Of a stretch of DNA of 64,000 bases, positions 41,152 to 62,775 are shown piece by piece. How positions within the stretch are numbered: position 1 is the stretch's first letter; every line of letters starts with the position of its first letter. Position numbers and translations under genes: made by a program. The notes beneath the pieces are model-generated. The model did not search any database and had not been told where the DNA came from. It worked only from the letters and a program-made list of their open reading frames with translations. The stretch is from the NCBI GenBank assembly GCA_002429485.1, contig DIZX01000015.1, positions 187,073-251,072 of the forward strand, in the 5' to 3' direction. This DNA is from Patescibacteria group bacterium UBA6017. GTDB taxonomy: Bacteria > Patescibacteriota > Saccharimonadia > UBA4664.

Positions 41152-41805
41152 ATGAGCCCAGAAAATCTATCAGAAGATCAGCAACCTGATTCAGAGGAAA
41201 TACAGCGGCACGCCGACCTCACGAATGATCTGCTCAACATTCGAGCCGAGGCCGCCCAAGAAGCCGACTATGACCCCCAGCCTATGCCGGAAGCTGGCCC
41301 CGAAGCAGGGCCGGAGAGAGATCAAATCTTCGAACAGGCCAGCGCCGAACGCGGCGGCTTTCTCCGAGACACCCTCACCTCCTCGCTAGTCAGCAACGGC
41401 CTCGACCTCGTTCCGTTCGTGGGCGGCGGCAAAATGCTCGTCGAATCAATCGCCGGCCAAACACTCAACGGAGAAGAGATGACCGGCAAAAACCGGATTA
41501 TTCACGCCGCCATGGGCGCCGGCAGCCTCGGGCTGGACCTCACTGGTATCGGCGAGGCCAGGGAGAGCGCGATGCTCGCGGGTAAAAGCGTAGGCCTAGT
41601 CGGTAAACTCGCAGCCAAACTAACCGAACGCGGAGCCGTCAAATCTGGCCGAATTTTCGAGATATCGGCCGCCTTTATGGCCGCTCACCCGGATCTGACC
41701 GCAGAAGCCGAACGTGCGGCGGAATCTCAGATCAAACATCAAATTAGCAACATCAAATCCTACCGCCTGCGTAACCAGCCGCTAGACAATGCCGAGGCAG
41801 CCTAG
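41152..41805 (+). CDS. hypothetical protein (217 aa), acidic N-terminus with a Gly/Ala-rich core
   Basis: Clean ORF with no recognisable domain. Confidence 0.5.
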   Translation: MSPENLSEDQQPDSEEIQRHADLTNDLLNIRAEAAQEADYDPQPMPEAGPEAGPERDQIFEQASAERGGFLRDTLTSSLVSNGLDLVPFVGGGKMLVESIAGQTLNGEEMTGKNRIIHAAMGAGSLGLDLTGIGEARESAMLAGKSVGLVGKLAAKLTERGAVKSGRIFEISAAFMAAHPDLTAEAERAAESQIKHQISNIKSYRLRNQPLDNAEAA

Positions 41806-41985
41806 ATGACTAAACCCGAACTCGCCCAAATCATCAACCAGCTAGTCTCGCTCGGCGAAGACCAGGCTGAGCTCAATATTTGGCTGGAAATATTCGACTA
41901 CTTAGAGCCAGCGCAACAAACCGAGCTCGAATTAAACCTATCCCAAGAACTCGAGGCCCTCAAATCATCACCGCCAACCGCCTAA
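41806..41985 (+). CDS. small hypothetical protein (59 aa, MTKPELAQIINQLVSLGEDQAELNIWLEIFDYLEP...)
   Basis: Not in the ORF track (59 aa). The ATG abuts the stop of the upstream gene (TAG-ATG), and the frame is protein-like. It overlaps the 5' half of tracked ORF 41880..42236. Confidence 0.3.
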   Translation: MTKPELAQIINQLVSLGEDQAELNIWLEIFDYLEPAQQTELELNLSQELEALKSSPPTA

Positions 41986-42236
41986 AACTACCTCCGTTTA
42001 CCCTCCGCCTCAAGCTTGGCCTCGGCCTAATCTACCTTGCCGGCCTGGGCTGGGGCGCCGAATTCATCATCCCCTTCACGCACATCAGCCATAAATTCGT
42101 AATCTGGATAATCGTCCTCGTTGCGGCCGAGATCTGTTTTGTCGCCGGAGTCGCCATCCTCGGCAAGGCTCTCTACCGAGAACTCAAAACTCGCCTCAGC
42201 GCCATACTGATCTCTCGCCAACCCCCTCAAAACTAA
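41880..42236 (+). CDS. small membrane protein (2 TM in the C-terminal 80 aa); the 5' limit is unclear
   Basis: The C-terminal part is LGLGLIYLAGLGWGAEFIIPF...IWIIVLVAAEICFVAGVAILG. The N-terminal 35 codons look like off-frame translation of the 59-aa ORF, so a frameshift is possible. Confidence 0.3.
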   Translation: MAGNIRLLRASATNRARIKPIPRTRGPQIITANRLKLPPFTLRLKLGLGLIYLAGLGWGAEFIIPFTHISHKFVIWIIVLVAAEICFVAGVAILGKALYRELKTRLSAILISRQPPQN

Positions 42237-42285
42237 CCGCCTCATAGAAAAACCCCGCGGCAATCATGCCTACGGGGCTTTTCTA

Positions 42286-42378
42286 TGGCGGAGAGGGAGA
42301 GATTCGAACTCTCGCGGGGGATTACTCCCCCCTACAGGTTTAGCAAACCCGCCCCTTCAGCCACTTGGGTACCTCTCC
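42286..42378 (-). tRNA. tRNA-Ser (anticodon GCT)
   Basis: Acceptor GGAGAGG, anticodon arm CGGGT-TTGCTAA-ACCTG, long variable arm, T-arm GAGAG-TTCGAAT-CTCTC, CCA encoded. A terminator-like hairpin lies at 42250-42282. Confidence 0.9.
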
Positions 42379-42488
42379 GTGCTAGCTGAACCTGGATACT
42401 ATACCGCGCAGAAAGCTTTCACTCAAGACCCGTACGACTTTTATGTATACTAAAATCTAAGCGCGAAAAGTTAAGCCGGAGAAAGAAA

Positions 42489-43115
42489 ATGGGCGAATAC
42501 GGACCATCCAATCAAGATCCAAACCCAAATCAAGCCATAAAGTTTATTGAGTCACTCGATGACACAGAAGATGGCAACGAAATGTCCCTGAAGCGTTGGC
42601 CGAGCATCGATACATTGCATGAAGCCGAAACCTTAGCCGATAGAATCAGCCGACAATTCTTCAGAATGGATTCCGTAATGGGAATCGCCCTCAATAAATT
42701 AAGGCAGTCGGGTAAAGTTAATTTCAAGCTCGTACAAGACTCCCTTAGCGGCCAAGATGACCCCAATGGCCTCGTCCATCCGCTAATCGAAGGCACCGAA
42801 ACCGAGCGTGAAGCGGCAGCCAAGAGTATTGAAGCATTCCTTGAGCAAAATGATGAAATAATTGAAGGCTTGACCCTTCAAGACGATGGCTTCGCCAAAG
42901 CCGAAGAGCTCGAATCCGACGAAAAACTACCCTATGGCTACTCTCAACGGCTACGCGCCAGCTCCATCAAGGCTGATATAAAGTATTTCGAGGACAGCAA
43001 TCAAGGCGACAAAGCCGCGGCGGCCAAAGCTCAAATTGACCAGCTTATCGCCGAAGGATTTAGTCCATTAACCAACGAAGAAATTGCCGAATTAATCGAC
43101 GTCACAGCGATTTAG
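42489..43115 (+). CDS. hypothetical acidic protein (208 aa)
   Basis: Clean ORF in a lower-GC stretch; no recognisable domain. Confidence 0.55.
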   Translation: MGEYGPSNQDPNPNQAIKFIESLDDTEDGNEMSLKRWPSIDTLHEAETLADRISRQFFRMDSVMGIALNKLRQSGKVNFKLVQDSLSGQDDPNGLVHPLIEGTETEREAAAKSIEAFLEQNDEIIEGLTLQDDGFAKAEELESDEKLPYGYSQRLRASSIKADIKYFEDSNQGDKAAAAKAQIDQLIAEGFSPLTNEEIAELIDVTAI

Positions 43116-43176
43116 GCCTCCAACTGACCCCCCCAAAAAAATACCTACCTCCCCGTATTCTCGGTATACTAACCTT

Positions 43177-44601
43177 ATGGATTCTGAACGATCAACACCT
43201 GGCTCAAGCCCAGACTCAACCTTCAACACCGAACTATCGGACAAACTACTGAGCGCGTCCCAGCTCGATGATGCCCTGGAGCTCGCGCAGCCCCTTGTTG
43301 GCACCGACTCGCGGGAGTCACCGGAAGTAATAGACCTGGTGACCCAGACCATTACCACTGCCTCAAACCCTCTCGAACTCTCCAGACTCTTCGTCCAGAC
43401 AGCAGGCAGTCTATCCGAGCACGACATCGAGCCGGGCTCCATGGACATGCCATCGTTTGCACGCCTAACTCGCCTCATCAAAGACACGGCAGGGGACGAG
43501 CACCAAACCGCGGAAATTGAACGCTTCTGCGCCAACTGGAAAATCAATCACGAGTACGCACAGGCCTACGAACGCTACGTTGCCCCCGTCGCCGAATCCG
43601 GACCAATAAGCTCAATAAAACCCCAGCTCGAGCCCCGTCTAGAGGATGTACCCTCACTGCAGGAGGCCCTATCCAGAGCCGGCTTGTCGCCCGATGTGGC
43701 CAAGGATATTTTCGCTACCTGGAACAGCTATCCAGCGCTGTCGGCCGACCCTAGCCGACTAGGTGATCCATCGAATTCAAGCGTAAGCCCGCAGGATGTC
43801 GAAGAGGCCACCCTCAAACAACGCGCCATGATCTCAAGCCAAGTCGAGGCCTTAATCGGGTACGCTGATGAATATGGCAAAGACGAACTCGCGAGCATTA
43901 TCACCACCTTCGGCATCCATAACTTCAGCCGCTACCGACCCGGGCAGCTCCATCAACAGCTCATGGACTGGAACGATCCATCTAAGTCATTCGAAAACGT
44001 AATCGTCTCCGCGGTCGCAGACTGGAATGGCACGCTCAGCCGAGCTGGTTCTCAACTCATGAGCCAAAAGAGCGACTCGTCGATCTACTTCGAAGCCGGA
44101 GGTCCCACATCGCTCGCCAAAGACCTTGTAGCCATCGGTGACCGAGATAGAGCCTATGGCCGCGATCCGCTCAAGGACAGCTCCGTGAAAAACGTTATTA
44201 TTTACGGTCACTCAAATAGCGACATCATCCAGCTCGGCGTGAACGGCGAAGGCATTACTGTTTCTGATTATGTTGAAGTTCCCGGCAACAAGACCGGCAT
44301 CAAGACCGGCATCAAAAGTCGTCTGAATGACTACCGACGCCATCTAGGCAACGATTTCCGCCTCATCCTCAAGTCATGCTCTACTACCGGCTCGCCATCC
44401 GGCGTACGCAACATCGCTGAGACCCTTAGCGATGAACACGGGGTCAAAGTCGCCGGCTCACCCCTGCCCACTACCGGCGAAATTATCATAAATCCAGACG
44501 GCGAAGTATTTTTTCAGGTCAATAAGCAGCCCGAAAACAGCAAATCAGAAGCTGAAATTATCCCTGCCGTAGTCTACGACGGTCGAAAATTAGCAGCCTA
44601 A
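43177..44601 (+). CDS. hypothetical protein (474 aa) with a possible Cys/His-containing hydrolase-like C-terminal domain
   Basis: Clean ORF. The C-terminal 150 aa contain VIIYGHSNSD and LILKSCSTTGSPSG. No confident family assignment. Confidence 0.6.
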   Translation: MDSERSTPGSSPDSTFNTELSDKLLSASQLDDALELAQPLVGTDSRESPEVIDLVTQTITTASNPLELSRLFVQTAGSLSEHDIEPGSMDMPSFARLTRLIKDTAGDEHQTAEIERFCANWKINHEYAQAYERYVAPVAESGPISSIKPQLEPRLEDVPSLQEALSRAGLSPDVAKDIFATWNSYPALSADPSRLGDPSNSSVSPQDVEEATLKQRAMISSQVEALIGYADEYGKDELASIITTFGIHNFSRYRPGQLHQQLMDWNDPSKSFENVIVSAVADWNGTLSRAGSQLMSQKSDSSIYFEAGGPTSLAKDLVAIGDRDRAYGRDPLKDSSVKNVIIYGHSNSDIIQLGVNGEGITVSDYVEVPGNKTGIKTGIKSRLNDYRRHLGNDFRLILKSCSTTGSPSGVRNIAETLSDEHGVKVAGSPLPTTGEIIINPDGEVFFQVNKQPENSKSEAEIIPAVVYDGRKLAA

Positions 44602-45822: not shown

Positions 45823-45844
45823 GCCAGCCCCCTTTAGATCCCGA

Positions 45845-45876
45845 GAAACACCGCCTCACCGGCGGTGTTTCTATTT
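45845..45876 (+). terminator. intrinsic terminator GAAACACCGCC-tcacc-GGCGGTGTTTC + TATTT after hsp20
   Basis: 11-bp perfect stem 23 nt after the stop. Confidence 0.6.
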
Positions 45877-45897
45877 GAGGACGGCAATCCGGACAAT

Positions 45898-45926
45898 AAA
45901 AAAGGACCCTTGCGGGTCCTTTTTTG
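45898..45926 (-). terminator. bidirectional terminator AAAAAGGACCC-ttgc-GGGTCCTTTTT 3' of the pilin-like operon
   Basis: Perfect stem with flanking A and T runs, 12 nt downstream of the stop at 45939. Confidence 0.6.
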
Positions 45927-45938
45927 GTCGGAGGGTGA

Positions 45939-46388
45939 TTAGTTGGCTTTGGATAAAGCATTAATCACGAACTGGACGAGGGCGAAGGATATCACCGCCA
46001 CCACTATACCGACAATGGCATAAAGGATTGTGTCTTTGGCGGCCGTAACGTTCTTGGAGTCACCGTTCGAGACCACGTAGCGCAAGCCGCCGATGATCAA
46101 GTAGATCACCGAGATAGCACCGACGAGGAAGATCAAGGTGTTGGCAATCACGGTGAAAATACCGCCCTGTCCGAACAAGTTATCCTTCTGGCTGCCACCC
46201 TGAGAGCATGAAGCGCCAGCGGTCAGCGGATCAGTAGCGTTGCCACTCGCGTCACAGTTTGATGCAGCTCCGAAGGCCGGGGAGGCCGAAATCATCACAC
46301 CCGCAACGGATGCGGATCCTACTCCCAGCACCAGGACGAGCGCCTGGAGCGAGAGCGCAACTTTCTTTAATAATCTCTCTATACCCAT
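45939..46388 (-). CDS. T4SS pilin-like protein, paralog 1 (VirB2/TrbC-like: signal peptide plus two C-terminal hydrophobic helices)
   Basis: N-terminal signal peptide, a Cys pair (NCDAS...ASCSQ), then IFLVGAISVIYLIIGGLRYVVSNGDSKNVTAAKDTILYAIVGIVVAVISFAL. It has its own promoter (TTGCTA-17-TAATGT at 46427-46455) and an AAGGAG RBS. Confidence 0.6.
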   Translation of the reverse strand: MGIERLLKKVALSLQALVLVLGVGSASVAGVMISASPAFGAASNCDASGNATDPLTAGASCSQGGSQKDNLFGQGGIFTVIANTLIFLVGAISVIYLIIGGLRYVVSNGDSKNVTAAKDTILYAIVGIVVAVISFALVQFVINALSKAN

Positions 46389-46456
46389 TAGAATCTAATC
46401 TCCTTAATAAAATTCAATTTGATGTGACATTAGCATAAGCGTTAACGACTAGCAAT

Positions 46457-46780
46457 CTACTTTCCTATAGTAGTCGTCACGAACTGCACTATCGCATACG
46501 CTACGATTGCTACGATTACACCTATGATAGCGTACATGATGGTGTCCTTGGCGGCCGTCACGTTCTTCGAATCACCGTTGGAGGTCACGTAACGCAACCC
46601 GCCGAGAATAATCATAATGACAGATAGGGCACCGATAAGTATCGTCAAAAAGTTGGCGACATTTGCAAAGATATGAGCCAAGCTCACATTGTTGCAATTA
46701 GCCCCACTCGCACAAGCCTGATTTGCTCCGGCCGTAATATTACTCGCTGCTGTTCCCAGTAAAACAACCAAACTACTCAT
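46457..46780 (-). CDS. T4SS pilin-like protein, paralog 2
   Basis: Signal peptide, Cys pair (CASGANC), and the shared core LGGLRYVTSNGDSKNVTAAKDTIMYAIIGVIVAIVAYAI. AGGAGA lies 6 nt before the ATG. Confidence 0.6.
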   Translation of the reverse strand: MSSLVVLLGTAASNITAGANQACASGANCNNVSLAHIFANVANFLTILIGALSVIMIILGGLRYVTSNGDSKNVTAAKDTIMYAIIGVIVAIVAYAIVQFVTTTIGK

Positions 46781-46800
46781 TTACATTCTCCTAAATTATG

Positions 46801-47106
46801 CTATTTCCCGAGCGCCGCAGCGATTCCGTCCACGATCGCGTAAGCCATGATCGCCAGTATCACCCCAGCAATTGCATATTGGAGCGAATCCCGCCCCTGC
46901 TGATACCGCTTGGCATCACCAGCCGATAAAGTGATTTGCAGCCCTCCTACAATCACGAATATTACCGCCAGCATGCCAATTATTATTATAAGCGTATGCG
47001 CAATACTTGCGAACCCCGTACTCAAATTTGTAGCGGAACTCGGGCAATTGTTGATCGTTTTGCACGAAATACCGTATAGCACCGCGACCAACCAACCGCC
47101 CATCAT
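46801..47106 (-). CDS. T4SS pilin-like protein, paralog 3
   Basis: Cys pair CKTINNC; core VGGLQITLSAGDAKRYQQGRDSLQYAIAGVILAIMAYAI. Its start abuts the stop of paralog 4. Confidence 0.55.
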   Translation of the reverse strand: MMGGWLVAVLYGISCKTINNCPSSATNLSTGFASIAHTLIIIIGMLAVIFVIVGGLQITLSAGDAKRYQQGRDSLQYAIAGVILAIMAYAIVDGIAAALGK

Positions 47107-47451
47107 CTAAAAGTTCCCCGAAATAAACGTAACTGCGGCATACGACATAATAATTAATATTAGGCCCGTTACCGTATTGATGAGGATTTCTTTCGCCCGT
47201 TTCACCCTGGACGGATCTCCTGTCGAGGTAATGTAGTAAATTGCCGCCACTAATATTGCAATGATCGCCAGCGAACCGGATATCGCAATCAAAATTCGCA
47301 TTATGTTCCCGATAATCTTTGCAACCTCTGTCAGTGAGGAAATCTGAATTTCATTCTTCGAATTACACAGGCCGTCGTAAAGACTCGGAAGCACCCCGTG
47401 CGTGGTACCGCAGTCCGCGGCGGCCATATGAAATAGCTGCAAAAAGATCAT
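47107..47451 (-). CDS. T4SS pilin-like protein, paralog 4
   Basis: Cys pair (ADCG...GLCNS); core IYYITSTGDPSRVKRAKEILINTVTGLILIIMSYAAV. Its start abuts the stop of paralog 5. Confidence 0.55.
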   Translation of the reverse strand: MIFLQLFHMAAADCGTTHGVLPSLYDGLCNSKNEIQISSLTEVAKIIGNIMRILIAISGSLAIIAILVAAIYYITSTGDPSRVKRAKEILINTVTGLILIIMSYAAVTFISGNF

Positions 47452-47928
47452 CTACAGCAACCCTCCGGGTACCAGGAAGTTCAAGATCGCCACCATCATC
47501 AAGTAGAGTACCAGCGCGGTAACGGCGTTCATTATTCGTCCCTTAGCGTTCTTCACGTTCGACGGATCGCCGCCCGAAACAATGTACTGAACACCCGCGA
47601 TCACCAGGACCAATATAATTATCCCGCCAATCAGGCTGTTTACCAGAAAAAGTATCTGCTTAAGGTAAAAAATGATTGCTCCGCCGGTCTTGGGATCGTT
47701 CGGAACCTCCACCTGACCCGACTTGCATGATCCCTGAGATCCACCGGCTGCGATCGGCAGCGCTAAACAGACCGGACCGCCGCCCCCGGTAATATCGGCC
47801 GGCGCCTTTGCTGCGGCGCCCACTTCAGCTGGCACCACATACGCTTGGCTACCCAAAACAACAACGTCCAGTGGCGCCGATACAACAGCCGCAAACGCAA
47901 CAAACAGGAATAAACTTAAGCGCTTCAT
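47452..47928 (-). CDS. T4SS pilin-like protein, paralog 5 (first gene of the pilin operon)
   Basis: Signal peptide, Cys pair (PVCLAL...GSCKSG); core VQYIVSGGDPSNVKNAKGRIMNAVTALVLYLMMVAIL. Confidence 0.55.
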   Translation of the reverse strand: MKRLSLFLFVAFAAVVSAPLDVVVLGSQAYVVPAEVGAAAKAPADITGGGGPVCLALPIAAGGSQGSCKSGQVEVPNDPKTGGAIIFYLKQILFLVNSLIGGIIILVLVIAGVQYIVSGGDPSNVKNAKGRIMNAVTALVLYLMMVAILNFLVPGGLL

Positions 47929-47935
47929 TAGGTGT

Positions 47936-47965
47936 ATTGTACCGACCCGCCCACCTAAAAGTCAA
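47936..47965 (-). promoter_or_regulatory. promoter for the pilin operon: TTGACT-18 nt-TACAAT with the -10 ending 7 nt before the ATG (probably leaderless)
   Basis: On the minus strand: TTGACT tttaggtgggcgggtcgg TACAAT acaccta ATG. Confidence 0.5.
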
Positions 47966-48002
47966 AAACTCTAATGCTTTGAACGCGGAGGTTATTTAAG
48001 AT

Positions 48003-48037
48003 TTGACTTCATTTATATAGCATAAGCGTTGTACAAT
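48003..48037 (+). promoter_or_regulatory. promoter for the T4SS structural operon: extended -10 TGTACAAT ending 7 nt before ATG 48045 (probably leaderless); weak -35
   Basis: TTGACT at 48003-48008 (23-nt spacer, so a weak -35) and TGTACAAT at 48030-48037. The 13-nt motif TAGCATAAGCGTT at 48018-48030 is also present at 46431-46443. Confidence 0.45.
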
Positions 48038-48044
48038 ATGACAC

Positions 48045-51000
48045 ATGAGACGTAGGTGGTTCGGAATATTCCTCATGGCGTGGGCGTTTATGTCCCCACT
48101 GTTTGCGTTCGCCCCGGCGGCAGAAGCCGCCCCGCCCTCCGAGTGCCACTGGACTGACCCAAACCACATCGTTTGTGATGGCACCAGCACCTACACCAAG
48201 ACTGCATTCCAAAATACAACCATCTACCGATCGGATATAAGCCACTTTATTGCAAATATCAACGCCGCCCATACGGCTGGAACATTCACCGAAATCACCC
48301 AATCGCCCCAGACGGCCAATACATACCCGATGGCGCTTGGCAGCCCGGCTAATGCCACAACTACACCCAAAAATCCGCCGTCTACCTCCCTTGCCTGCTC
48401 CTGGACAGACAAAACACTCATTCAGTGCGGCACCGAACAATTTAAATTTATTCATATAGCAGCGCAAAACCAAGATCGCTGGGTCAATAGTGCCACCAGC
48501 TTCATTGCCAACGTATCGGCCAACAAGACCGCCGCCACCCATTACACCATGCTTCAATCGGGATTGCCCGGACCTACCAATCCGGTCACCCTTAGCAATC
48601 CGGCCAACGCCACCAAAAACCCAGCTGCTCCTGGCGGAGGTCCAACCGCCGATAAACCCGTCAACTGTGAAGCAGGCGCCTTCACTTGGCTCGTCTGCGG
48701 CAGCATCAAAATCCTCGTCGGTGTCGTCGACACCATTACTAACGATGTTATCGTTCCGTTCCTCAAAGAACCCCCGCTCGACAAAAACCAAAAAGAATTT
48801 GCCCCAGTCTATGCCATCTGGTCAGCATTTCGAAACGTTGCCAGCGTCTTCTTCATCCTCGTCTTCTTCCTGGTGATTATCGGCACCGCCCTCGGCTTCG
48901 ACAACTACACCATTAAGAAGGTTCTCCCGCACCTGGTAGCAGGCGCCATTTTGATGCCGTTCTCGTGGTATCTATGTGCCTTTTTGGTCGATATCGGCAA
49001 TGTGCTTGGCCAAGGCATCGTCGTACTCATGACTAATATTATTATTATCGGCACGCCCAAAGTAGATCTCACCTCGAATTTCACCACCTTATTCCTCGGT
49101 GTCGGCGGGGGAGTAGGCACTTTCGCATTAATCGGTGCCGCAACCATCCTGGGGTTCTGCGCCATAATCTCGCTGCTAATTGCCTTCGCCGGCGTATTTC
49201 TGACCCTGGTATTCCGCAAAATATTAATTCTGTTTCTGATCATCATCAGCCCGTTTGCCCTCCTGGCCTGGGTCCTGCCCAACACCGAGAAGTGGTTCAA
49301 AGAATGGTGGCAAAACTTCCTCAAGCTCGTTATGCTCTATCCCATCATCATGATGCTGATCGAGGTTGGCCGTCTGTTCTCCGCCACTGCCACCGCCGCC
49401 TCCCCCGGCGCCATCTGTGCCGCCGGCGATACGGCCTGTCAGGCGACAGCCTGGGTAGCACCATTCTTCGCCATCGCCGGACTCACCGTCCCGCTCTTTA
49501 TCATCCCGTTTGCCTTCAAGTTTGCCGGCAAGGGTCTCGCGGCGGGCAGCGGCGCCATCAACAAGCTTGGCGGCGGCATCGACAAGAAATACGGAAAGGA
49601 CAGCGCCCTCGCCAAGGACCTCGCCGAAGGGCGCCAGCGCAAGAATGTGGCAGCTGCCAAGATTGCCGAAAGCAACGCCAAGAGCGCTCATGGCCTTCAC
49701 AAGACCGCCCTGAACCGCAAAGCCGCCATGAACTGGCGCCGAGCCGGGTTGGCGGGCAGTACCGGCAGCGCCAAGCTGAGGCGCGGTGAGGCCGTCGGCA
49801 AAGCTGATAAAGAATTAAGTACGATTGATGCCGATAACCGTATGTCCAAAGAAGCAGATCCGGAAGACTTCCGGCAGCGCCGCCTCTCCACCACGCAGAG
49901 CATCCTCGACGAGAAGGCTGCCAACCGCGGTGCCCGCCAAGGTGTATTAGAAGGTTACAATGGCGCGGGCGCTCCAGGCGCACGAGACAAGCAGCACCAG
50001 GCTCGCATCAACTCCCGCGACAATTATCTGGCTGCAGCCGGAAAAGCCAAGGGCGAGATCGAAGACGACGCTCTCAACGAACGCGAACGAGTCAATCGCA
50101 CCGGCAATTACGTCAGCCCATCCATGAAAATGGCCGCCGCTCACGATACAGCCGCCCTTTCGGCCTCGGATGCTCGCGGAACAGCCAGAGGCATCGTTGA
50201 GGGCGGGGCTGAGGCTGAGCGTATCATTCAAAGTCAAACCGGCTTAAACGCCGCTGATGCCCGCGATCTTCGGCTCCGTAATGTAGCTAAAGCCAAAAGC
50301 AACATCCAAAGCGCTTCGGCAGTCACGACCCAACAAACTGCTAACACCAATGTAACCGCCAATGCCGAGCTCGATCGCCAGCAGATCGCAGCCGCCGGCG
50401 GCCATATGTCCCCCCAGCAAGCCCGCAGTCTACGTATGCAGAACCTATCCGCCGCCACTCACTCTCAAGAGCGTGAAAAGATTGGTGCCGCCGAAGGTCA
50501 GATCGATGCCCGAAATGCCATCACCGCCTCCGCCGGCCAGGAAAACATGGGCCGCCTGGTAACTGGTGAGCGGATGGCCGCCCGCGAGCAGCTCTCCAGC
50601 GCCCGGACCTTGCGCGAAGCCCGCGCCGACTTCCAAGCCACTCCCGAAGGCTATATGTCGACCGCTGACTCACTCAAGGCCAGCCGTTTGGAAGCCAACA
50701 AGCGTATAGGTGCCAGCATAGGCGCCCAAAAACAAGAGATCGCCCAGGAGCAGGAAGATATCGCCAAAGCCCTGCGCGACGGTAACCCTGCCCCCAGACT
50801 GGCCGACCACGTAATCGCCGGCACCGAAGCCGCCAAATCTAAGACCGCTCAAGACTCCGCCCAGCGCCTGGCCGCCGTCAACGCCGTCCGTACCGGCACC
50901 GCTGCCAGCACCAGACAGCACACCGACGCCGCCGTCTATACGGCCGAGCGCAGCACCGCCATCGCCGACGCCGCCGTCAAAGCCACCGCCAGCGCCGTTA

Positions 51001-52586
51001 ACGCCCAAATCGCCGCCGTTGCCGGGGAGAAGGGCTTATCTACAGCCGCCGCCGCCCAAGCCGTCCGCACCGATAATCTCAAAGTCGCTGCGCGCGCCAA
51101 AGAAATAACTACGAACGCAGAATTTGCTACTACTCCCGCAAAAGACAGAGGCGTCATCAAGGCGTATGAAGCCGCCATCGAACAGGCCCGAGAAGCCCCC
51201 CTCCGAAAAGCCAAGGTAGCAGCCTTTGAGCGTGCCGATGAAAATGCCCGCACCGACACCTATGAACAGTCCTATCAAATCGCAAAAGCCGCCAAAATGA
51301 CGGACAAGGCAGGCAAGATCGTGAAAGACGCCGCAGGCAACGAGGTTCTCAAGTTCACCGAAGGCGAAGCCCGAGACTATGCCGCAAAAGCCAGAGATAC
51401 GCTCGGCGCCGAAAGGGGCCAAAAAGCTGGTCGCGAGGCAGCCGACAAAATCACAGCCGTAGGCAAGTTGAATTCCGCAGATGCCGAACGAGCCGTGATC
51501 GCATCCTCCGCAACAGCCGCAGAAGAATTAGCCATGCGCACAGAAGCCTCCTCGCAAGCCCAAACTGCCGCCCTCAATCAGGCCGTTGAATCGTCTGCCA
51601 CAAAACTCGATGCTAGAGAGCGCCTAGCCGTCCAGACCGAAGGTTCCGTTGCAACACTAGCTGCCGAATCTGGAGCCGCCAGAGCCCGCTACGACCTTAC
51701 TCGTCCCGGACAATCGTTAAACCAATCCTATCAAGCTGCCGAAGACCACGTAGTAAAGTCCGAACGGCTAAAAATAATAGGTGATCGCGTCGAAAAAGCC
51801 GGCAATGAAGACTTTACCTTTATGGGCAAAGACGGAGTGCCACACTCCGACAGTGTCAAAAACGCCGACTTAGGCCCAGACGGCGTCAAAGCCCAGGACG
51901 ATGAAATCAGGAGGTTGCTCAAAGATGGTTACCAAGACCCCGAAAACGAAGATCGCGCCCTCGCGCTCGTAGGCAGACTGTCGTTAACGGGCAGCGGCAG
52001 AGAAAGAGTTCGCGCAATTCAACGTGACCTATTTGGAAGAACTGAAGACCAATTGATCGATCCCACCAGATTTAAGGGCCGGGCCAGTGAGCTCTGGGAG
52101 ATCGTGCAGTCAAAAAACAAATCTGATGTATCCAAGGACTTCTTCATGCCCGAACCTGCCGCCTATGACGGCTACAGCTCATCCGAGTTTGGTCGCTCTG
52201 GTTGGGGAGAAAAGAAAAATTACTTCGAATTCGCCAAAAGAGTAGACAAAGATAATATTTACGACGAATCTACTCGAAATATCCAACAAGCCCTAACCAA
52301 CGCTCAAGTTACAAAGGAACTGAATTCCGATGACTACGCTCAAATGTGGATCTATATGCAAGACCCCAAGGCCCTAACTGCTCTGGCCACACGAGACACA
52401 GACGCAGGGAAAGGCAAAACAGGCCTCGACATCGTAAAGAAGATATATGCGTCAGGTGGCGCGGCTGAAGCCGAAAAGAGATGGTTAGAAAAACAAGGCG
52501 GCGACCCAAGCAGGAATATTCTCAAACAATACGCAGATTCTGGCTTCACTGTTTTACCGCCAGTGCCACCCCCTCCGACCCCCTAG
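48045..52586 (+). CDS. VirB6/TrbL-like T4SS inner-membrane protein with an N-terminal Cys-pair repeat domain and an about 1000-aa Ala/Lys/Glu-rich C-terminal extension
   Basis: 1513 aa. It has a signal peptide; three C-x9-C motifs (CHWTDPNHIVCDG, CSWTDKTLIQCGT, CEAGAFTWLVCGS); a polytopic core of about 8 TM helices between residues 230 and 500; then a low-complexity Ala-rich helical tail. Confidence 0.7.
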   Translation: MRRRWFGIFLMAWAFMSPLFAFAPAAEAAPPSECHWTDPNHIVCDGTSTYTKTAFQNTTIYRSDISHFIANINAAHTAGTFTEITQSPQTANTYPMALGSPANATTTPKNPPSTSLACSWTDKTLIQCGTEQFKFIHIAAQNQDRWVNSATSFIANVSANKTAATHYTMLQSGLPGPTNPVTLSNPANATKNPAAPGGGPTADKPVNCEAGAFTWLVCGSIKILVGVVDTITNDVIVPFLKEPPLDKNQKEFAPVYAIWSAFRNVASVFFILVFFLVIIGTALGFDNYTIKKVLPHLVAGAILMPFSWYLCAFLVDIGNVLGQGIVVLMTNIIIIGTPKVDLTSNFTTLFLGVGGGVGTFALIGAATILGFCAIISLLIAFAGVFLTLVFRKILILFLIIISPFALLAWVLPNTEKWFKEWWQNFLKLVMLYPIIMMLIEVGRLFSATATAASPGAICAAGDTACQATAWVAPFFAIAGLTVPLFIIPFAFKFAGKGLAAGSGAINKLGGGIDKKYGKDSALAKDLAEGRQRKNVAAAKIAESNAKSAHGLHKTALNRKAAMNWRRAGLAGSTGSAKLRRGEAVGKADKELSTIDADNRMSKEADPEDFRQRRLSTTQSILDEKAANRGARQGVLEGYNGAGAPGARDKQHQARINSRDNYLAAAGKAKGEIEDDALNERERVNRTGNYVSPSMKMAAAHDTAALSASDARGTARGIVEGGAEAERIIQSQTGLNAADARDLRLRNVAKAKSNIQSASAVTTQQTANTNVTANAELDRQQIAAAGGHMSPQQARSLRMQNLSAATHSQEREKIGAAEGQIDARNAITASAGQENMGRLVTGERMAAREQLSSARTLREARADFQATPEGYMSTADSLKASRLEANKRIGASIGAQKQEIAQEQEDIAKALRDGNPAPRLADHVIAGTEAAKSKTAQDSAQRLAAVNAVRTGTAASTRQHTDAAVYTAERSTAIADAAVKATASAVNAQIAAVAGEKGLSTAAAAQAVRTDNLKVAARAKEITTNAEFATTPAKDRGVIKAYEAAIEQAREAPLRKAKVAAFERADENARTDTYEQSYQIAKAAKMTDKAGKIVKDAAGNEVLKFTEGEARDYAAKARDTLGAERGQKAGREAADKITAVGKLNSADAERAVIASSATAAEELAMRTEASSQAQTAALNQAVESSATKLDARERLAVQTEGSVATLAAESGAARARYDLTRPGQSLNQSYQAAEDHVVKSERLKIIGDRVEKAGNEDFTFMGKDGVPHSDSVKNADLGPDGVKAQDDEIRRLLKDGYQDPENEDRALALVGRLSLTGSGRERVRAIQRDLFGRTEDQLIDPTRFKGRASELWEIVQSKNKSDVSKDFFMPEPAAYDGYSSSEFGRSGWGEKKNYFEFAKRVDKDNIYDESTRNIQQALTNAQVTKELNSDDYAQMWIYMQDPKALTALATRDTDAGKGKTGLDIVKKIYASGGAAEAEKRWLEKQGGDPSRNILKQYADSGFTVLPPVPPPPTP

Positions 52587-52659: not shown

Positions 52660-53469
52660 ATGGGCCAGTATAAGGTGCCGCAAAACGTAGAGGCCGAGGA
52701 CAAGATTCTTGGCCCGTTAACTTTCAAGGAGTTTATCTACTTCTTGATGGGTTTTGGTTGGGCCGCGCTGAGCTTTGCCATCTTCCGTCAAATTCCCGTC
52801 CTCATGGTCGTCATCGGCTTTCCGCCCACCACGCTATTGCTGCTGCTGGCCTTCTACAACCGCGACGGCCAAAGCTTTGAGCAGCTCCTGGTAGCCATGG
52901 TGGGTTTCTTTGCCACCTCCCGCCGCCGCGCCTGGTCCAAAGATGACATCATCGAAACCTTCCACGTGGAGGCCACCGTCATCGCCGCCGAGGCCACCCA
53001 GCGCAATTCGGCCGAAGTCCGCGGTGAGCTCGAAAAACTCGCCAACCTCATCGATTCCCGCGGCTGGAACCACCCCCAGGAGCCCGAACCCTCACAGATC
53101 ATGCCATCTATCGCCCACACCGACCGCATCGTGCCCACGCCGCCGCCAACCCCCGGTGAAGTACCCACCGATATCCTCGACCTGCAGCAAAGTCCGCTGG
53201 CCCAAAACCTTGCCGAGCTACTACGCGCGGCAGCCGAAGACGTTCGCGAAGAGGCTATCCAGCAAATGGCCGGCAAGCCAGTCCGGCCCGTAAAAGGCGC
53301 TCCAGCCCCCACAAGCATAAGCGGCGTGACAGCCGCGTCGCCGAACGATATACTTCAATTAGCAACGCAGAGTGATGAGTTAAGTGTGACGCAGATTGCC
53401 GCCCAGGCCACCCGCCGGGTTGCGCTGCCAAACGGACAAACCTTGGAGATTCCCGTCAATGGCAGCTAA
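52660..53469 (+). CDS. PrgI-family (VirB3-like) T4SS membrane protein
   Basis: N-terminus KVPQNVEAEDKILGPLTFKEFIYFLMGFGWAALSFAIF matches the PrgI-family pattern (VPKDI..YEEK..GLT.RQ), followed by two TM helices. It overlaps the next gene by 11 nt. Confidence 0.65.
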   Translation: MGQYKVPQNVEAEDKILGPLTFKEFIYFLMGFGWAALSFAIFRQIPVLMVVIGFPPTTLLLLLAFYNRDGQSFEQLLVAMVGFFATSRRRAWSKDDIIETFHVEATVIAAEATQRNSAEVRGELEKLANLIDSRGWNHPQEPEPSQIMPSIAHTDRIVPTPPPTPGEVPTDILDLQQSPLAQNLAELLRAAAEDVREEAIQQMAGKPVRPVKGAPAPTSISGVTAASPNDILQLATQSDELSVTQIAAQATRRVALPNGQTLEIPVNGS

Positions 53470-54193
53470 CGCCAATACACATTCCGGTAAAAGCGCCCAA
53501 GATACCCTCCTGATCGCCGAGATCAAGGATGGCATCGTGGTCATGAAAGATGGCTCCCTCCGAGGCGTTATTCTCAGCAGCGCCATCAACTTCGACCTCA
53601 TGAGTCCCAGCGAGCAAGAGGCCGTCGAATCAGCCTATCAGGGCTTCCTCAACTCGCTGCATTTCCCCGTACAAATCTCCATTAAGAGCCAAAAAATCGA
53701 TATCACCGGCTACCTCGAGAAGCTCGATGCGCTCCGTGCTGAGCAACCCAATGAGCTCCTTGGCGTCCTGATGGACGACTACATCGCCAACATTCGCGCC
53801 CTCGTGGAAGAGGTCAATATTATGGACAAGCAGTTCTACGTGGTCATCCCGTATTTCCCCCCGTCCGCCGTTCAAAAAAGCAACAGCCTGATCGATAAGC
53901 TCAAAGGCGCCTTTGAATCCACCCCGATGATTACCGTCAGCGAGGAAGATTTCAAGAAGAACAAAACCGAGCTCTCGCAAAGAATGGCTCTGGCCGCCAA
54001 CGGCATGACCCAAATGGGCGTCCGCGCCATCTCGCTCGGCACCCAAGAGTTGGTTGACCTTTACTATTCCTGGTACAACCCCGACGTCGCCGTCAACCAA
54101 AAACTCATCGACACCTCACAGCTCGGCACGCCAGCCGTCACCAAGGGAGTCGGCTCCGCGCCGCGCGGCCCGCTACCGGGAGCACCACTGTAA
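53459..54193 (+). CDS. VirB4 N-terminal domain protein (split VirB4, part 1)
   Basis: IAEIKDGIVVMKDGSLRGVILSSAINFDLMSPSEQEAVESAYQGFLNSLHFPVQISIKSQKID is a typical VirB4/TraE N-domain. It ends at TAATG, which overlaps the next ATG. Confidence 0.7.
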   Translation: MAANANTHSGKSAQDTLLIAEIKDGIVVMKDGSLRGVILSSAINFDLMSPSEQEAVESAYQGFLNSLHFPVQISIKSQKIDITGYLEKLDALRAEQPNELLGVLMDDYIANIRALVEEVNIMDKQFYVVIPYFPPSAVQKSNSLIDKLKGAFESTPMITVSEEDFKKNKTELSQRMALAANGMTQMGVRAISLGTQELVDLYYSWYNPDVAVNQKLIDTSQLGTPAVTKGVGSAPRGPLPGAPL

Positions 54194-56064
54194 TGGGACT
54201 ATTTGGGAAAAAACCTGCTGCCACCGTCGACCAAGCTCAACTCGAACAGATGCAAAAATCGATGGAGTCTCGCGAAGCTGAGCTCATTTACCGTCAAGGT
54301 ATCGTCACCATGCGCGACCTCATCGCGCCGCCCTCAATCGAGGTGGAATCGGCCTATCTTCGCCTTGGCAAGCGCTACTGCAAGACTATCTATGTTTATG
54401 GCTACCCCCGCCAAGTTTTCACGGGCTGGTTATCGCCCATTATTAACCTCGACGAACTCGTCGATCTCTCGCTCTTTATCTACCCAGTCGAGAGCCAAGT
54501 GGTACTCACCAACCTCCGCCGCAAAATGGGCCAGCTCGAGGCCAGCTACAGTATCAACCAAGAAAAAGGCCTCGTTCGCGACCCTGGCCTAGAGGCCGCC
54601 ATTCAAGATGCCGAAGAACTCCGCGACAAGCTGCAAGTAGGGGAGGAGCGCTTCTTCCGTTTTGGACTTTACCTCACCATGTACGCTGACACGCTGGACA
54701 ACCTCAACCAAACCACGCGCAAGATTGAAGGTATCTTCGGTCAGTCACTGGTCTATACCAAACCCACCACTATGCAGATGGAACAGGGCTTCAACTCCAC
54801 CACCCCGCTCGGAACCGATCAGATGCAGATCAGCCGCAACATGAACACCGGCGCGCTCTCCACGAGCTTCCCCTTTACCTCCTCCGAACTCTCCCGCAAT
54901 GAAGGCATCCTTTATGGCCTCAACCGGCACAACAACGGCCTGGTACTCTTCGACCGGTTCAGCCTCGAAAACGCCAACATGGTGGTGTTCGCCAAGTCCG
55001 GCGCCGGTAAATCCTTCGCCATCAAGCTGGAGGCCCTGCGTAGCCTCATGATGGGCGTCGAATGCATCATTATTGACCCGGAAGACGAGTACAAGCCCCT
55101 CTGTGAGGCCGTCGGTGGAACCTACCTGCGCCTCAGCCTGGCCTCCAAGACTCGCATCAATCCCTTCGACCTTCCGCGCGTGTTCGACCAAGACGAGGCC
55201 GATAACGCTCTGCAGGCCAACATCATCTCGCTCCACGGCCTCCTGCGCCTCATGATGGGCGGCGCCACCGTCAATACCTCTACCGGCGCCACGCTGTCCT
55301 CGCCGCTTTCACCCGGCGAAGAAGCCGATCTGGATGCCGCCATCATCAACACCTACGCCCGCGCCGGCATCACCCGCGACCCGCTCACCCACAGCGCCAC
55401 CCCGCCCACCATGAACGACCTCTACAACACCCTCGCCTCCATGACCGGCACCGGCCCCGGCCTCGCCCAGCGCCTCCGCCAGTACACCACTGGCACCTTC
55501 TCTGGCATCTTCTCCGAACAATCCAACGTTGAGCTCGACAACCCCTTCCTGGTCTTCAACATCCGCGATCTCGAAGACGCCCTCCGCCCCGTCGGCATGT
55601 ACATTGTCCTCAACTACATCTGGAATAAAGTTAAATCCGACCGCCGCAAGCGCCTGCTCATTATTGACGAGGCCTGGCAGCTCATGAAGTACGACGATTC
55701 TGCCAACTTCATGTTCTCGCTCGCCAAACGCGCCCGCAAATACTACCTCGGCCTCACCACCATCTCGCAGGACGTCGAAGACTTCCTCGGCAGCAAGATG
55801 GGCCGCGCCGTGGTGGCCAACTCCTCCCTCCAGCTGCTGCTCAAGCAGGCCCCCAGCGCCACCGACATCATCGCCGAAACTTTCAAGCTCACCCAAGAAG
55901 AAAAGAACCGCCTCAGCCAATTCCCGGTGGGCGAGGGCCTATTCTTTGCCGGCCTCAACCATGTCATCATCCGCATCTTAGCGTCCGATACCGAGACCCA
56001 GCTCATATCAACTAATCCCGGCGGTACCAAAACCCCTCCGCCGACCGGAGGTGAGGCTCAATAA
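54193..56064 (+). CDS. VirB4-family T4SS ATPase (CagE/TrbE/VirB domain; split VirB4, part 2)
   Basis: Walker A VVFAKSGAGKSF, Walker B LLIIDEAWQLM, and the central motif YVYGYPRQVFTGWLSPII...DLSLFIYPV. Confidence 0.9.
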   Translation: MGLFGKKPAATVDQAQLEQMQKSMESREAELIYRQGIVTMRDLIAPPSIEVESAYLRLGKRYCKTIYVYGYPRQVFTGWLSPIINLDELVDLSLFIYPVESQVVLTNLRRKMGQLEASYSINQEKGLVRDPGLEAAIQDAEELRDKLQVGEERFFRFGLYLTMYADTLDNLNQTTRKIEGIFGQSLVYTKPTTMQMEQGFNSTTPLGTDQMQISRNMNTGALSTSFPFTSSELSRNEGILYGLNRHNNGLVLFDRFSLENANMVVFAKSGAGKSFAIKLEALRSLMMGVECIIIDPEDEYKPLCEAVGGTYLRLSLASKTRINPFDLPRVFDQDEADNALQANIISLHGLLRLMMGGATVNTSTGATLSSPLSPGEEADLDAAIINTYARAGITRDPLTHSATPPTMNDLYNTLASMTGTGPGLAQRLRQYTTGTFSGIFSEQSNVELDNPFLVFNIRDLEDALRPVGMYIVLNYIWNKVKSDRRKRLLIIDEAWQLMKYDDSANFMFSLAKRARKYYLGLTTISQDVEDFLGSKMGRAVVANSSLQLLLKQAPSATDIIAETFKLTQEEKNRLSQFPVGEGLFFAGLNHVIIRILASDTETQLISTNPGGTKTPPPTGGEAQ

Positions 56065-58549: not shown

Positions 58550-59842
58550 ATGCGACGCTTACTACTCATCCTTTCCCTCGCCCTTGTTCCGTTTCAGGCG
58601 CTAGCCGTCACGCCCGCCACCAGCCATATCCTCAACTATCAATCTACCTTCTACGACCCCGCCGACACTGGCCAAACTTGCGGCAGCCCCACGAGCGGTG
58701 GCGCTCCCGCTGGCAGCGGCAACCCCAGCGGTACGCAAGTTCAACACGCTCAATCCATCATCGGTATTGCGAAAACCTTAAACATGGGCAAGCAAGGCGC
58801 TCTCATTGGGCTTATGGTTGCCCTAGCCGAATCCAGTCTTCAAAATTACGCCAATGACGGCTCATTTCAACCCAGCTATGCACCTTTAAAGGCAATTTCT
58901 GAAGCCCTTCCGCACGACGCCGTCGGCAGAGATCATGACTCCGTCGGCTTGTTTCAGCAGCGCGCGGTTGATGGCAGCTGGGGGCCAGTGAGCCCCTCCA
59001 AGGACCTGGCCGGAAACGTTAAATGGCTCATGACCCCAACCTATTCCGCCGAGGCCTTCTTTGCCATGCCGGCCGGGAAAGGTGACACCAAAGCCCTGAC
59101 GAACGTCTCTGGGTGGCAGACCATGGACCCTGCAGTCGCTGCCCAAAAAGTCCAGGCGTCAGGCGACCCTAGTGGCGGCAACTACCGACGTCAGCAGTCC
59201 GCCGCCGAAGCCCTATTAACTAAATACTATGACTCTTCGCCCGCCATAGCGCTCCCAGTACCATTGGCTAAGGGTGGCGGCGGTGGCGGTGGCGGCAACG
59301 GGGGATCGAGCGGAGGGACTGCGAACAGCTCATGCCCCGATACCTCAGCTCCTACCACCGGAGGCCCGATCTCGGGCTGCACCAACCCCATCACCGATCA
59401 TCGCTGGCAGCCCGCCCGAACAGATCAGGGCGTCGACTACGTCGAGAACGCCAACATCCCCGTCCGTGCCATCTGCGACGGCACCATAGTGGAAACCGAT
59501 GGCGGCGGCTGGCCGGGCGGATACTTTGTAATCATAAAAATGTCGGCCGGCCCTTACATAGGAAAATGCACCTTTGTTGCCGAACATCTCAGTAATGTAT
59601 TGCCCAAGGGCACAAAAGTGAAAGCCGGACAACAAATTGCCACCACCCTGCCGGGTTACCCCTGGACTGAATGGGGCTGGGCCGCCGGACCTCAGACCCC
59701 TAGCACGACGTATAATGGCGCCGCAGATGGGTCCTCTATGCCGGGAGGAAAAGCCTTTGCCCGTTTCCTCCGCCACCTCGGAGCCAAAACCCAACAAGAC
59801 CCCGGTCCTGGCCCCGAATACGCCGGCAGCAATTGTAATTAA
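58550..59842 (+). CDS. secreted two-domain cell-wall hydrolase (SLT/lysozyme-like N-domain, poly-Gly linker, M23/LytM-like C-domain); functional analogue of VirB1/PrgK/TcpG
   Basis: Signal peptide; ALAESSLQNYANDG...DHDSVGLFQQR (E-S...GLxQ transglycosylase-like); G8-NGGSSGG linker; C-domain DQGVDYV...GKCTFVAEHLSNV...KAGQQIATT (M23-like, but the canonical HxH is not obvious). Confidence 0.6.
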   Translation: MRRLLLILSLALVPFQALAVTPATSHILNYQSTFYDPADTGQTCGSPTSGGAPAGSGNPSGTQVQHAQSIIGIAKTLNMGKQGALIGLMVALAESSLQNYANDGSFQPSYAPLKAISEALPHDAVGRDHDSVGLFQQRAVDGSWGPVSPSKDLAGNVKWLMTPTYSAEAFFAMPAGKGDTKALTNVSGWQTMDPAVAAQKVQASGDPSGGNYRRQQSAAEALLTKYYDSSPAIALPVPLAKGGGGGGGGNGGSSGGTANSSCPDTSAPTTGGPISGCTNPITDHRWQPARTDQGVDYVENANIPVRAICDGTIVETDGGGWPGGYFVIIKMSAGPYIGKCTFVAEHLSNVLPKGTKVKAGQQIATTLPGYPWTEWGWAAGPQTPSTTYNGAADGSSMPGGKAFARFLRHLGAKTQQDPGPGPEYAGSNCN

Positions 59843-59879: not shown

Positions 59880-60554
59880 ATGAATCCAGACTTCCCAGAC
59901 CAAACCAGCCCAGATCCAATGAAGCCAGCTTCAAGCCGCAAAAAAATAATCATCCTTGTAGCCCTCGGGGTAATCTGTCTAATCGGCCTATTAACCTTCA
60001 CGCAAAATCGATCCAAAAAAGTCTCTCAAACCTCGACAAGCCCACAACCGTCCAGCGTCGCTCACGCCACCTCCACCCCGCTTCCCGACCCTCATCCCGC
60101 TCGAGACGTTATTGCCTTAGTCACCAACTACGTACAAGCCCGAGAGAATTCCGTAGGAGCAGATCAGGCGACTCCGAATTCCTGGCTGGCCTCGGTTAAA
60201 CCAATTTCAACAACGGCCTGGTTTGCCGAGCTCCAACCCGGACAAAAAGGATCCGCCGGAAGCGCAACTGCCGAATTTAACCTGGCACACAACAACGACT
60301 ACATTGTCTCGGCCAATCTTAGTAAATGTATCTGGAATTTTAAGCTCGGCCTTCCCACCCCCAACGCCGGCGATATCTATTGCGAGCTCACCGACAGCAC
60401 CCTCTCCCGTTCCACGCAAGCCGTCATACCCGACGAGTCCCTACCGTTTGGCTGGAGCCACAACGGCGCACAAGCAGCGGTAACCCTCAAATTAATCAAA
60501 CAAAATGGCACTTGGCTCATCAACGACGACACTAGTGGCGCCGATCAGGATTAA
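59880..60554 (+). CDS. bitopic membrane protein, possible VirB8/PrgL-like (NTF2-fold) T4SS component
   Basis: Short cytoplasmic N-terminus, one TM helix, Ser/Pro linker, and an about 150-aa C-terminal domain. Both its position (last gene, after the hydrolase) and its topology match PrgL/TcpC. No sequence motif was recognised. Confidence 0.35.
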   Translation: MNPDFPDQTSPDPMKPASSRKKIIILVALGVICLIGLLTFTQNRSKKVSQTSTSPQPSSVAHATSTPLPDPHPARDVIALVTNYVQARENSVGADQATPNSWLASVKPISTTAWFAELQPGQKGSAGSATAEFNLAHNNDYIVSANLSKCIWNFKLGLPTPNAGDIYCELTDSTLSRSTQAVIPDESLPFGWSHNGAQAAVTLKLIKQNGTWLINDDTSGADQD

Positions 60555-61894: not shown

Positions 61895-62054
61895 AGACTC
61901 ATTGTATCTGATTCAGATTTGTTTACCTCCCCAAGCATAACCTTGACAGAATTGTACATTTAAACTATTATATAACTTGAACGAGCGTGCGCCGGTACGC
62001 CATTCGTTATCTCACCCGAGATTGACAACCCAGTTCCCATTGGAGGGAAGAATC

Positions 62055-62672: not shown

Positions 62673-62775
62673 CTCCAACTACGCCCCCGACGGGGCCCCC
62701 ACCCATCACAAGAAAGTGAGGCCACGTCGGGGGCCTCACCATGTCAACGCAATTATTTCGAATATTTAGTGGGTT

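Follow-up and report, generated by a model that had tools for sequence, protein, structure and literature searches.

The DNA analyzed here is a 64,000-nucleotide (nt) stretch of contig DIZX01000015.1 from the Saccharimonadia bacterium UBA6017, hereafter the window, which carries at positions 45939–47928 five tandem paralogous genes that we designate P1 to P5. P1–P5 are likely to be VirB2-like pilin subunits of the PF18895 family that belong to an origin-proximal, chromosomal type IV secretion system (T4SS) of the Saccharibacterial kind, and to be old paralogs that are not interchangeable with one another. The family membership of the proteins, their two-helix hairpin, the gene context, the orthology and order of the genes and the pattern of their variability were established in this analysis. 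An earlier inspection of the nucleotide letters (the sequence-only reading) had proposed a five-gene array of VirB2-like subunits; the analysis bears out both the array and that interpretation, and arrays of this kind have been described since 2018, so that the reading was a correct rediscovery.

All five genes were found as consecutive open reading frames (ORFs) on the minus strand, transcribed in the order P5 to P1 (coordinates throughout are those of the whole window). P5 (47452–47928; 158 amino acids, aa; class F) is the first gene of the operon, and its stop codon directly abuts the start codon of P4 (47107–47451; 114 aa; class E), the stop of which in turn abuts the start of P3 (46801–47106; 101 aa; class D); both junctions read TAGATG. 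A gap of 20 nt separates P3 from P2 (46457–46780; 107 aa; class A) and includes a GGAG located 8 nt upstream of the P2 ATG. The distal gene, P1 (45939–46388; 149 aa; class A), follows after 68 nt, with a Shine-Dalgarno site (AAGGAG, 46400–46405, minus strand) ahead of its ATG. Thus, the abutting or Shine-Dalgarno-coupled junctions described by the sequence-only reading from P5 through P2 were all found. In the public gene call on locus L081 (3955–4128 and 4242–4472, corresponding to the P3 and P2 genes of the window), internal starts were used, giving proteins of 57 aa for P3 and 76 aa for P2. We favor the longer forms because their N-terminal, cysteine (Cys)-containing residues are conserved in orthologs, because GGAG precedes the P2 ATG, and because the P4/P3 junction is abutting. 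The long start of P2 is further supported by the N-terminal motif GAxxACGxSCN, which is conserved in its orthologs. Public annotations of such pilin arrays may, by using internal starts, lose exposed parts of the proteins.

To PF18895 (T4SS_pilin; Pfam gathering score, 26.6 bits), P1 to P5 scored 29.7, 45.4, 33.9, 34.3, and 35.8 bits, respectively; since all five exceed the gathering score, the similarity is far beyond chance. The two hydrophobic helices and short charged loop that characterize this family were present in each protein, and among the matches listed for the 876 database relatives of the pilins, all carried PF18895. The top NCBIfam match for P1–P5 was NF045849 (Mbov_0395 pilin-like conjugal transfer protein), which aligned over the hairpin with 19.8 to 31.8 bits, below its cut-off of 40. 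A sequence search of the PDB with a profile of the five proteins returned chance matches only (E ≥ 0.1). The pilin genes are chromosomal, 6 to 8 kb from virB4 and near recF and dnaN, and P5 lies head-to-head with a divergent VirB6/TrbL-like gene. The window therefore holds what defines a Saccharibacterial pilin array, namely at least two tandem pilin genes near virB4 and other T4SS genes, with neither a relaxase nor a coupling protein in the window. The VirB2-like identity proposed by the sequence-only reading is thus upheld by family membership and by a T4SS gene neighborhood, and the same interpretation of such genes is already in print (PMC12102498, PMC10633639, PMC12857230, bioRxiv 10.1101/258137).

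P1–P5 share a C-terminal unit of two hydrophobic stretches and an S-x-G-D...K loop, of which S, G, and D are invariant in an alignment of the five proteins; the core peptides that had been quoted for each were found there. Two C-terminal hydrophobic segments were detected by hydropathy in all five, and an AlphaFold2 (AF2) model of P1 built with 70 homologs formed a hairpin of helices 77–106 and 111–148, with a predicted local distance difference test score of about 90, behind a signal helix and a low-confidence Cys-loop region. Each protein contains exactly two Cys residues, both N-terminal to the first hydrophobic helix (Cys45 and Cys61 in P1, Cys23 and Cys29 in P2, Cys15 and Cys21 in P3, Cys14 and Cys29 in P4, and Cys54 and Cys68 in P5), which bears out the single Cys pair per protein noted earlier. 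Among 150 family members, 82 had exactly two Cys before helix 1, 29 (mostly short, P3-like) had none, and the others had 3 to 10. Pairwise protein identity was 21–53% in local alignments and 20–66% over the 65-residue hairpin, and the DNA of the paralog cores was 43–67% identical. The approximately 80% DNA identity claimed for P1 and P2 across the core applies to the 90 nt quoted (79%), and over the entire hairpin of 65 to 71 codons it falls to 66–67%.

The claim that each gene encodes a signal peptide stands for P1 and P5, in which a classical signal peptide is predicted from a basic n-region, a long hydrophobic h-region, and an AxA-like site with small residues before the mature part; P5 also has the longest ectodomain. 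It is not fully borne out for P2–P4, which carry only 12 to 14 uncharged hydrophobic residues ahead of the first Cys. Extension of P3 and P4 at the N terminus is blocked by upstream stop codons, and because the short N termini are kept in orthologs of six to seven related genomes, they are a real feature of these classes. P3, with its Cys15, was also considered as a lipoprotein, and this was rejected because the residues preceding the Cys misfit a lipobox and because the P3 orthologs in loci L003, L008, and L019 are without Cys. As read from the sequences, the loops carry a positive and the N-terminal parts a negative net charge, which fits a topology with the N terminus outside, the loop inside, and the C terminus outside, as for VirB2-type proteins (bioRxiv 10.64898/2025.12.18.695078).

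To compare the array with those of related genomes, 80 loci anchored on VirB4, out of 513 relatives in genome contigs, were fetched with a 10-kb flank, and their ORFs were searched with a hidden Markov model (HMM) of P1–P5. By title, the 80 loci were mostly from Saccharibacteria/Saccharimonadia, with many labeled as unclassified "bacterium" and a few under other names, and its VirB4 assigns the window to Saccharimonadia; the closest VirB4 in the genome collection was approximately 95% identical (94.5% in locus L001), and the best P1 match was 93% identical. At every locus with enough upstream sequence, a tandem PF18895 array occurred in the same divergent position. The array comparisons drew on 29 complete arrays with 163 pilins. 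A complete array held 4 to 8 genes in a fixed order, so the copy-number variation that the sequence-only reading had suggested looking for does occur among relatives. In the closest relatives, L001, L003, and L008, each window paralog best matched the gene at the equivalent position, giving one-to-one positional orthology, and for 160 of the 163 pilins the nearest relative was found in a different genome. From the distal to the VirB4-proximal end, the classes were colinear in the window clade as A-A-D-E-F, and in other clades three to six A genes were followed by B-C, H-J, or G-I. Copy number changed in class A only, from 2 to 6 between genomes. P1-type proteins had the highest family HMM scores across the 29 arrays and were always distal, and P5 takes the VirB4-proximal place in related arrays. 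Neither direct nor inverted repeats of at least 20 nt occur within the array. This last result, the fixed order, and the 160 cross-genome nearest relatives together indicate old, specialized paralogs instead of cassette-type antigenic variation. The age of the paralogs, their fixed order, and the conservation of each one lead us to favor a division of labor among them.

An alternative is that the paralogs are versions of one and the same filament subunit that are swapped or differentially expressed for antigenic or host-range variation, as proposed for the VirB2 proteins of Bartonella and Anaplasma; the idea has also been raised for Patescibacterial arrays (PMC12102498). Part of the variability is in its favor. 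In 64 P1-type sequences, mean column entropy was 1.7 bits in the Cys loop, against 0.5 bits for either helix and likewise for the inter-helix loop, so that the Cys loop is about three times as variable as the hairpin, and the 2 to 6 class A copies could be read in the same way. Moreover, the pilins were 63–80% identical between the window and L001, whereas identities were 98% for dnaN, 94% for recF, 94.5% for VirB4, and 99% for hsp20. However, the traits of a pilE/pilS-like cassette locus were absent from the array. All five copies are complete genes, arranged in two transcription units and coupled or joined through Shine-Dalgarno sites, with no silent or partial cassettes and no recombination repeats of the size given above, and the identity of the paralog cores is too low for homologous recombination at both the protein and the DNA level. 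With 3 exceptions among the 163 pilins, copies within a genome are not closer to each other than to their orthologs, and gene order is fixed. Against L001, nonsynonymous divergence (dN) was 0.15 to 0.31 for the pilins and 0.01 to 0.03 for housekeeping genes. Where computable, dN/dS against L001 did not exceed approximately 0.16, a rough ratio given that synonymous sites were saturated (pS 0.6–0.77), and positive selection on the pilins is not demonstrated by it. Furthermore, the ectodomain motif CGTxxGxLPSLYD of P4 is conserved in its class, and therefore not every exposed part is variable; the hypervariability ascribed earlier to the exposed regions holds for the P1-type Cys loop and fails for the P4 type. 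Finally, in the orthologous cluster of Southlakia epibionticum, the pilin genes are reported to be essential (Wang 2023, PMC10633639). We thus regard antigenic variation as unlikely. Where the sequence-only reading had left open "antigenic or functional diversification," one-to-one orthologs and fixed order speak for the functional half, and the complete, coupled, repeat-free copies speak against the antigenic half.

Fast divergence from L001 was also observed outside the pilin genes, in T4SS parts predicted to be exposed at the surface. The VirB6-like protein was 72% identical, in particular diverging over residues 1 to approximately 200 (48045–48650), an 827-aa membrane protein was 69% identical, and an M23 peptidase aligned only in fragments, whereas VirB4, PrgI, and a 265-aa protein diverged far more slowly. 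The outer face of the T4SS as a whole, beyond the pilins, thus seems to evolve fast, as far as these sequence comparisons tell.

The separate promoter that had been proposed for P1 corresponds to a promoter-like footprint at 46427–46455 of the minus strand, in which a 17-nt spacer with TG-n at its end separates TTGCTA from TAATGT. The arrangement TTGCnn-N17-TGnTAATGT is kept upstream of P1 in five related genomes (L001, L003, L008, L009, and L019) despite divergent flanks, and we infer that it has promoter activity; a simple consensus promoter scan missed it. Upstream of P5, the candidate promoter of the P5–P2 operon (47936–47965, minus strand; TTGACT-N18-TACAAT, 10 of 12 matches) ends 7 nt upstream of the P5 start codon, and both the site and this spacing are conserved in L001, L003, L009, and L019. 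Downstream of P1, a strong intrinsic terminator hairpin is predicted at 45898–45925 on the minus strand (−20.5 kcal/mol, z −5.5; none of 200 shuffles folded as well), and its flanking A-run and T-run make it probably bidirectional, so that it would also serve the convergent hsp20 gene. The hsp20–P1 intergenic region (45840–45935) holds two hairpins, namely this terminator, with the stem GGACCC-GCAA-GGGTCC, and, found by eye, a GC-rich inverted repeat at about 45850–45876.

Two further features were observed in these regulatory regions. In the intergenic region that P5 shares with the divergent VirB6-like gene (47929–48044), a −10-like TACAAT hexamer ends exactly 7 nt before each of the two divergent ATGs (minus strand, 47941–47936 with the ATG at 47928; plus strand, 48032–48037 with the ATG at 48045), and neither gene has a Shine-Dalgarno site. 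By eye, the same −10 spacing precedes the VirB6-like gene in L001 and L019, and L003 has TATACT followed by 6 nt. This spacing in genes devoid of a Shine-Dalgarno site suggests that the P5–P2 operon and the VirB6-like operon may both begin as leaderless mRNAs. In addition, an exact 13-mer, AACGCTTATGCTA, occurs twice on the minus strand, at 46431–46443 in the spacer and −10 element of the P1 promoter and at 48018–48030 in the divergent intergenic region; with up to 2 mismatches allowed, about one match per window is expected by chance. In L001, AACGCTTATGCTA is exact in the divergent region, and a copy with one mismatch, AGCGCTTATGCTA, lies at the P1 promoter. The core of the 13-mer, GCTTATGC, is nearly palindromic. 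The repeated 13-mer could be a site for a regulator in common or merely a promoter element.

On the other side of the divergent region lie the remaining T4SS genes. The VirB6/TrbL-like polytopic membrane protein is encoded at 48045–52586 (plus strand) and is extended to 1513 aa; by hydropathy, it consists of a signal peptide, an ectodomain of approximately 180 aa, about eight hydrophobic segments, and a hydrophilic tail of approximately 1000 aa, and a precomputed match to PF19590 (TrbL_3) exists for the identical gene. Downstream are a PrgI/VirB3-family protein (52660–53469, plus strand; 269 aa; PF12666, E = 4e-12), a 265-aa protein with no assigned family (53396–54193), a VirB4-like ATPase (54193–56064, plus strand; 623 aa; PF19044, E = 2e-26, and AAA_10), the 827-aa membrane protein mentioned above (56064–58547; hydropathy), and a secreted M23 peptidase (58550–59842, plus strand; 430 aa; PF01551) with a signal-like N terminus, which by analogy is a probable cell-wall hydrolase of the system, VirB1-like in function. 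Sequence searches against the PDB and additional Pfam scans gave no match for the 827-aa protein and, for the 1513-aa protein, only a faint one to PF04610. A 224-aa bitopic protein (59880–60554) follows, and then a DciA-like protein, recF, a DUF3558 protein, and dnaN (60559–63885). Among the long ORFs of the 64-kb window, none matched a relaxase or coupling-protein Pfam family; this speaks against conjugation, a point also made by others for such systems (PMC10633639, PMC12102498).

We infer the topology of the pilins, their polymerization, and their roles as major or minor subunits. Each protein would insert into the membrane as a hairpin, with the Cys-loop N terminus and the C terminus outside and the S-x-G-D...K loop in the cytoplasm. 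By analogy with VirB2 and PrgF(B2), subunits would be extracted from the membrane and stacked on the VirB6/TrbL-like platform in a process powered by VirB4, the 1513-aa protein being the presumed assembly platform, while the M23 hydrolase would open a path through the wall. The product would be a short pilus or conduit to the host bacterium, its lumen lined by the charged loop. P1, of class A, is most likely the abundant subunit, the main building block of the shaft, because its sequence is best conserved and because it has its own conserved promoter-like footprint, a terminator, and a strong Shine-Dalgarno site, and the translationally coupled P5, P4, P3, and P2 are probably low-copy specialized subunits that might act in priming or at the base or tip. 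A more specific proposal, which we advance only tentatively, is a heteromeric T4SS pilus built from several non-redundant VirB2-like subunits, in which A-type pilins would form the shaft and the proximal classes would serve as primer, base, or tip, substituting for the absent VirB5. It is suggested by the fixed order and one-to-one orthology, and the layout is in keeping with it: the expandable class A copies are distal and have their own promoter, and the two or three divergent classes adjoin the VirB6-like gene. We know of no T4SS pilus for which a division of labor among subunits has been shown. If true, the proposal would offer a concrete model of the essential conduit that links the epibiont to its host.

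Several observations weigh against the reading of P1–P5 as pilins of this system. None of the five proteins matched the TrbC/VirB2 model PF04956 at E ≤ 1, and in our own Pfam scan the TrbL_3 match of the 1513-aa protein was not reproduced, with only a faint match to PF04610 (E = 0.82) appearing. That P2–P4 are without a canonical signal peptide makes the export route of their N termini unclear, and the assignment of P1 as major and the others as minor subunits rests on promoter-like motifs and conservation. To our knowledge, no one has seen a pilus of such proteins in a Patescibacterium, and the literature known to us holds no direct proof of a filament.

In a second alternative, P1–P5 are channel or accessory subunits of the T4SS that reside in the membrane and never polymerize outside, so that "pilin" is a family label only. 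Besides the fact that a pilus has never been observed, pili were long thought to be absent from monoderm T4SSs, the fold searches were uninformative, and the short N termini of P2–P4 expose very little mass. Nevertheless, the features required of pilus-forming VirB2-type proteins are matched by the hairpin with its charged loop and by the conserved linkage to VirB4 and a VirB6-like platform, and the fast-evolving ectodomain with paired Cys suggests exposure outside the cell. Supportively, PrgF(B2) of the enterococcal plasmid pCF10, a Gram-positive analogue with two transmembrane (TM) helices and a charged loop, is needed for conjugation, and labeling data support its action as a lumen-forming pilus (bioRxiv 10.64898/2025.12.18.695078). 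We therefore give purely membrane-resident subunits only a slim chance. That the genes encode Sec-secreted effectors or unrelated small membrane proteins (holins or bacteriocin/immunity proteins) that merely lie beside a T4SS is very improbable: although the proteins are small and hydrophobic and earlier TM7x papers took small neighboring proteins with signal peptides for putative effectors (bioRxiv 10.1101/2022.03.25.485537), the two C-terminal TM helices (from hydropathy, and from AF2 for P1) would retain them in the membrane, all five belong to PF18895, every related locus that had enough flank kept the synteny with VirB4, and a PHROGs scan, which covers the phage and holin families named by the sequence-only reading as the possible refutation, gave no match for P1, P2, and P5, no match at E ≤ 0.01 for any of the five, and no holin, the matches of P3 and P4 (E = 0.03 to 0.1) being limited to one "membrane protein" family and families of unknown function.

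Other observations concern single loci and the rest of the window. In L083, a 4559-bp contig (JGI 3300013758), an identical P5 is preceded by ORFs of 609 aa and at least 380 aa instead of one ORF of approximately 1500 aa, and this split of the VirB6-like gene may be a frameshift or a misassembly. Upstream of the T4SS locus, the region 41152–44601 encodes a 217-aa protein with a subthreshold match to PF14449 (Pre-toxin TG; E = 3e-4, 21.3 bits versus a cut-off of 23.5), followed by three ORFs of 118, 208, and 474 aa with no family match; it may be a polymorphic-toxin or immunity-like region. Two FemAB-family genes (23557–24597 and 27899–28951) lie near a Mur ligase gene (22182–23519), which points to the synthesis of a peptide cross-bridge in the cell wall of this organism, whose genome is reduced. 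Elsewhere, the window holds housekeeping genes, including rpoD, dnaG, groEL, Mur ligase, FemAB, and valS.

What this analysis adds to the published descriptions is modest, namely one further clean example of the array and a comparative result. The fixed order and the orthology count against antigenic variation of the cassette type and for specialized subunits, so that the comparative result favors a structural division of labor rather than the antigenic variation that published work has suggested; this narrows the range of useful experiments and opens no new question.

Among known systems, P1–P5 are related over the hairpin to the Mycoplasma integrative and conjugative element family Mbov_0395 (NF045849); they fall below its cut-off and so are not members. 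With the diderm pilins VirB2/TrbC/TraA (PF04956), P1–P5 have in common the predicted topology of signal peptide, two helices, and charged loop and the linkage to VirB3, VirB4, and VirB6, and multiple VirB2 paralogs also occur in Bartonella and Anaplasma. In contrast to these pilins, the window proteins do not match PF04956, come from a monoderm, and have a Cys-pair ectodomain, three of the five are without a canonical signal peptide, and neither VirB5 nor outer-membrane core genes are present. PrgF(B2) of Enterococcus faecalis pCF10 (MPF-FATA) is likewise small, with two TM helices and a short charged loop; it comes from a monoderm, where PrgI/VirB3, VirB4, and a VirB6-like protein are encoded beside it, and it has been proposed to stack on a VirB6 pentamer. 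Unlike P1–P5, it is encoded by a single gene on a conjugative plasmid with a relaxase and a coupling protein, and no Cys-loop ectodomain has been described for it; the likeness rests on architecture and PrgI-type context.

A close likeness is seen to Nanosynbacter lyticus TM7x and S. epibionticum ML1 (T4SS cluster SEML1_0006-0019), which also have tandem PF18895/VirB2-like genes, a VirB4-VirB6-VirB3 cluster, and an origin-proximal location. In these arrays and in the window alike, no relaxase or coupling protein is recognizable, and the paralogs are structurally similar and divergent in sequence. McLean 2018 (bioRxiv 10.1101/258137) described "4-6 small hypothetical proteins with signal peptides," related to VirB2, beside VirB4 and VirB6 in Saccharibacteria. 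Quinonero-Coronel 2025 (PMC12102498) found 441 arrays of 2 to 11 pilin genes in 3,035 Patescibacteria genomes, mostly in Microgenomatia and Saccharimonadia, and suggested antigenic variation or host adaptation; the within-array identity reported there (mean, 25%; maximum, 54%) agrees with the 21–53% of the window. The window differs from TM7x and ML1 in that it represents a separate, environmental lineage of Saccharimonadia and in having five pilin genes versus six in ML1. The function of the Saccharibacterial T4SS has been described as completely unknown (PMC11665869). The system is essential to the life of Saccharibacteria on their host bacteria, and the pilin array distinguishes it from the other monoderm T4SSs.

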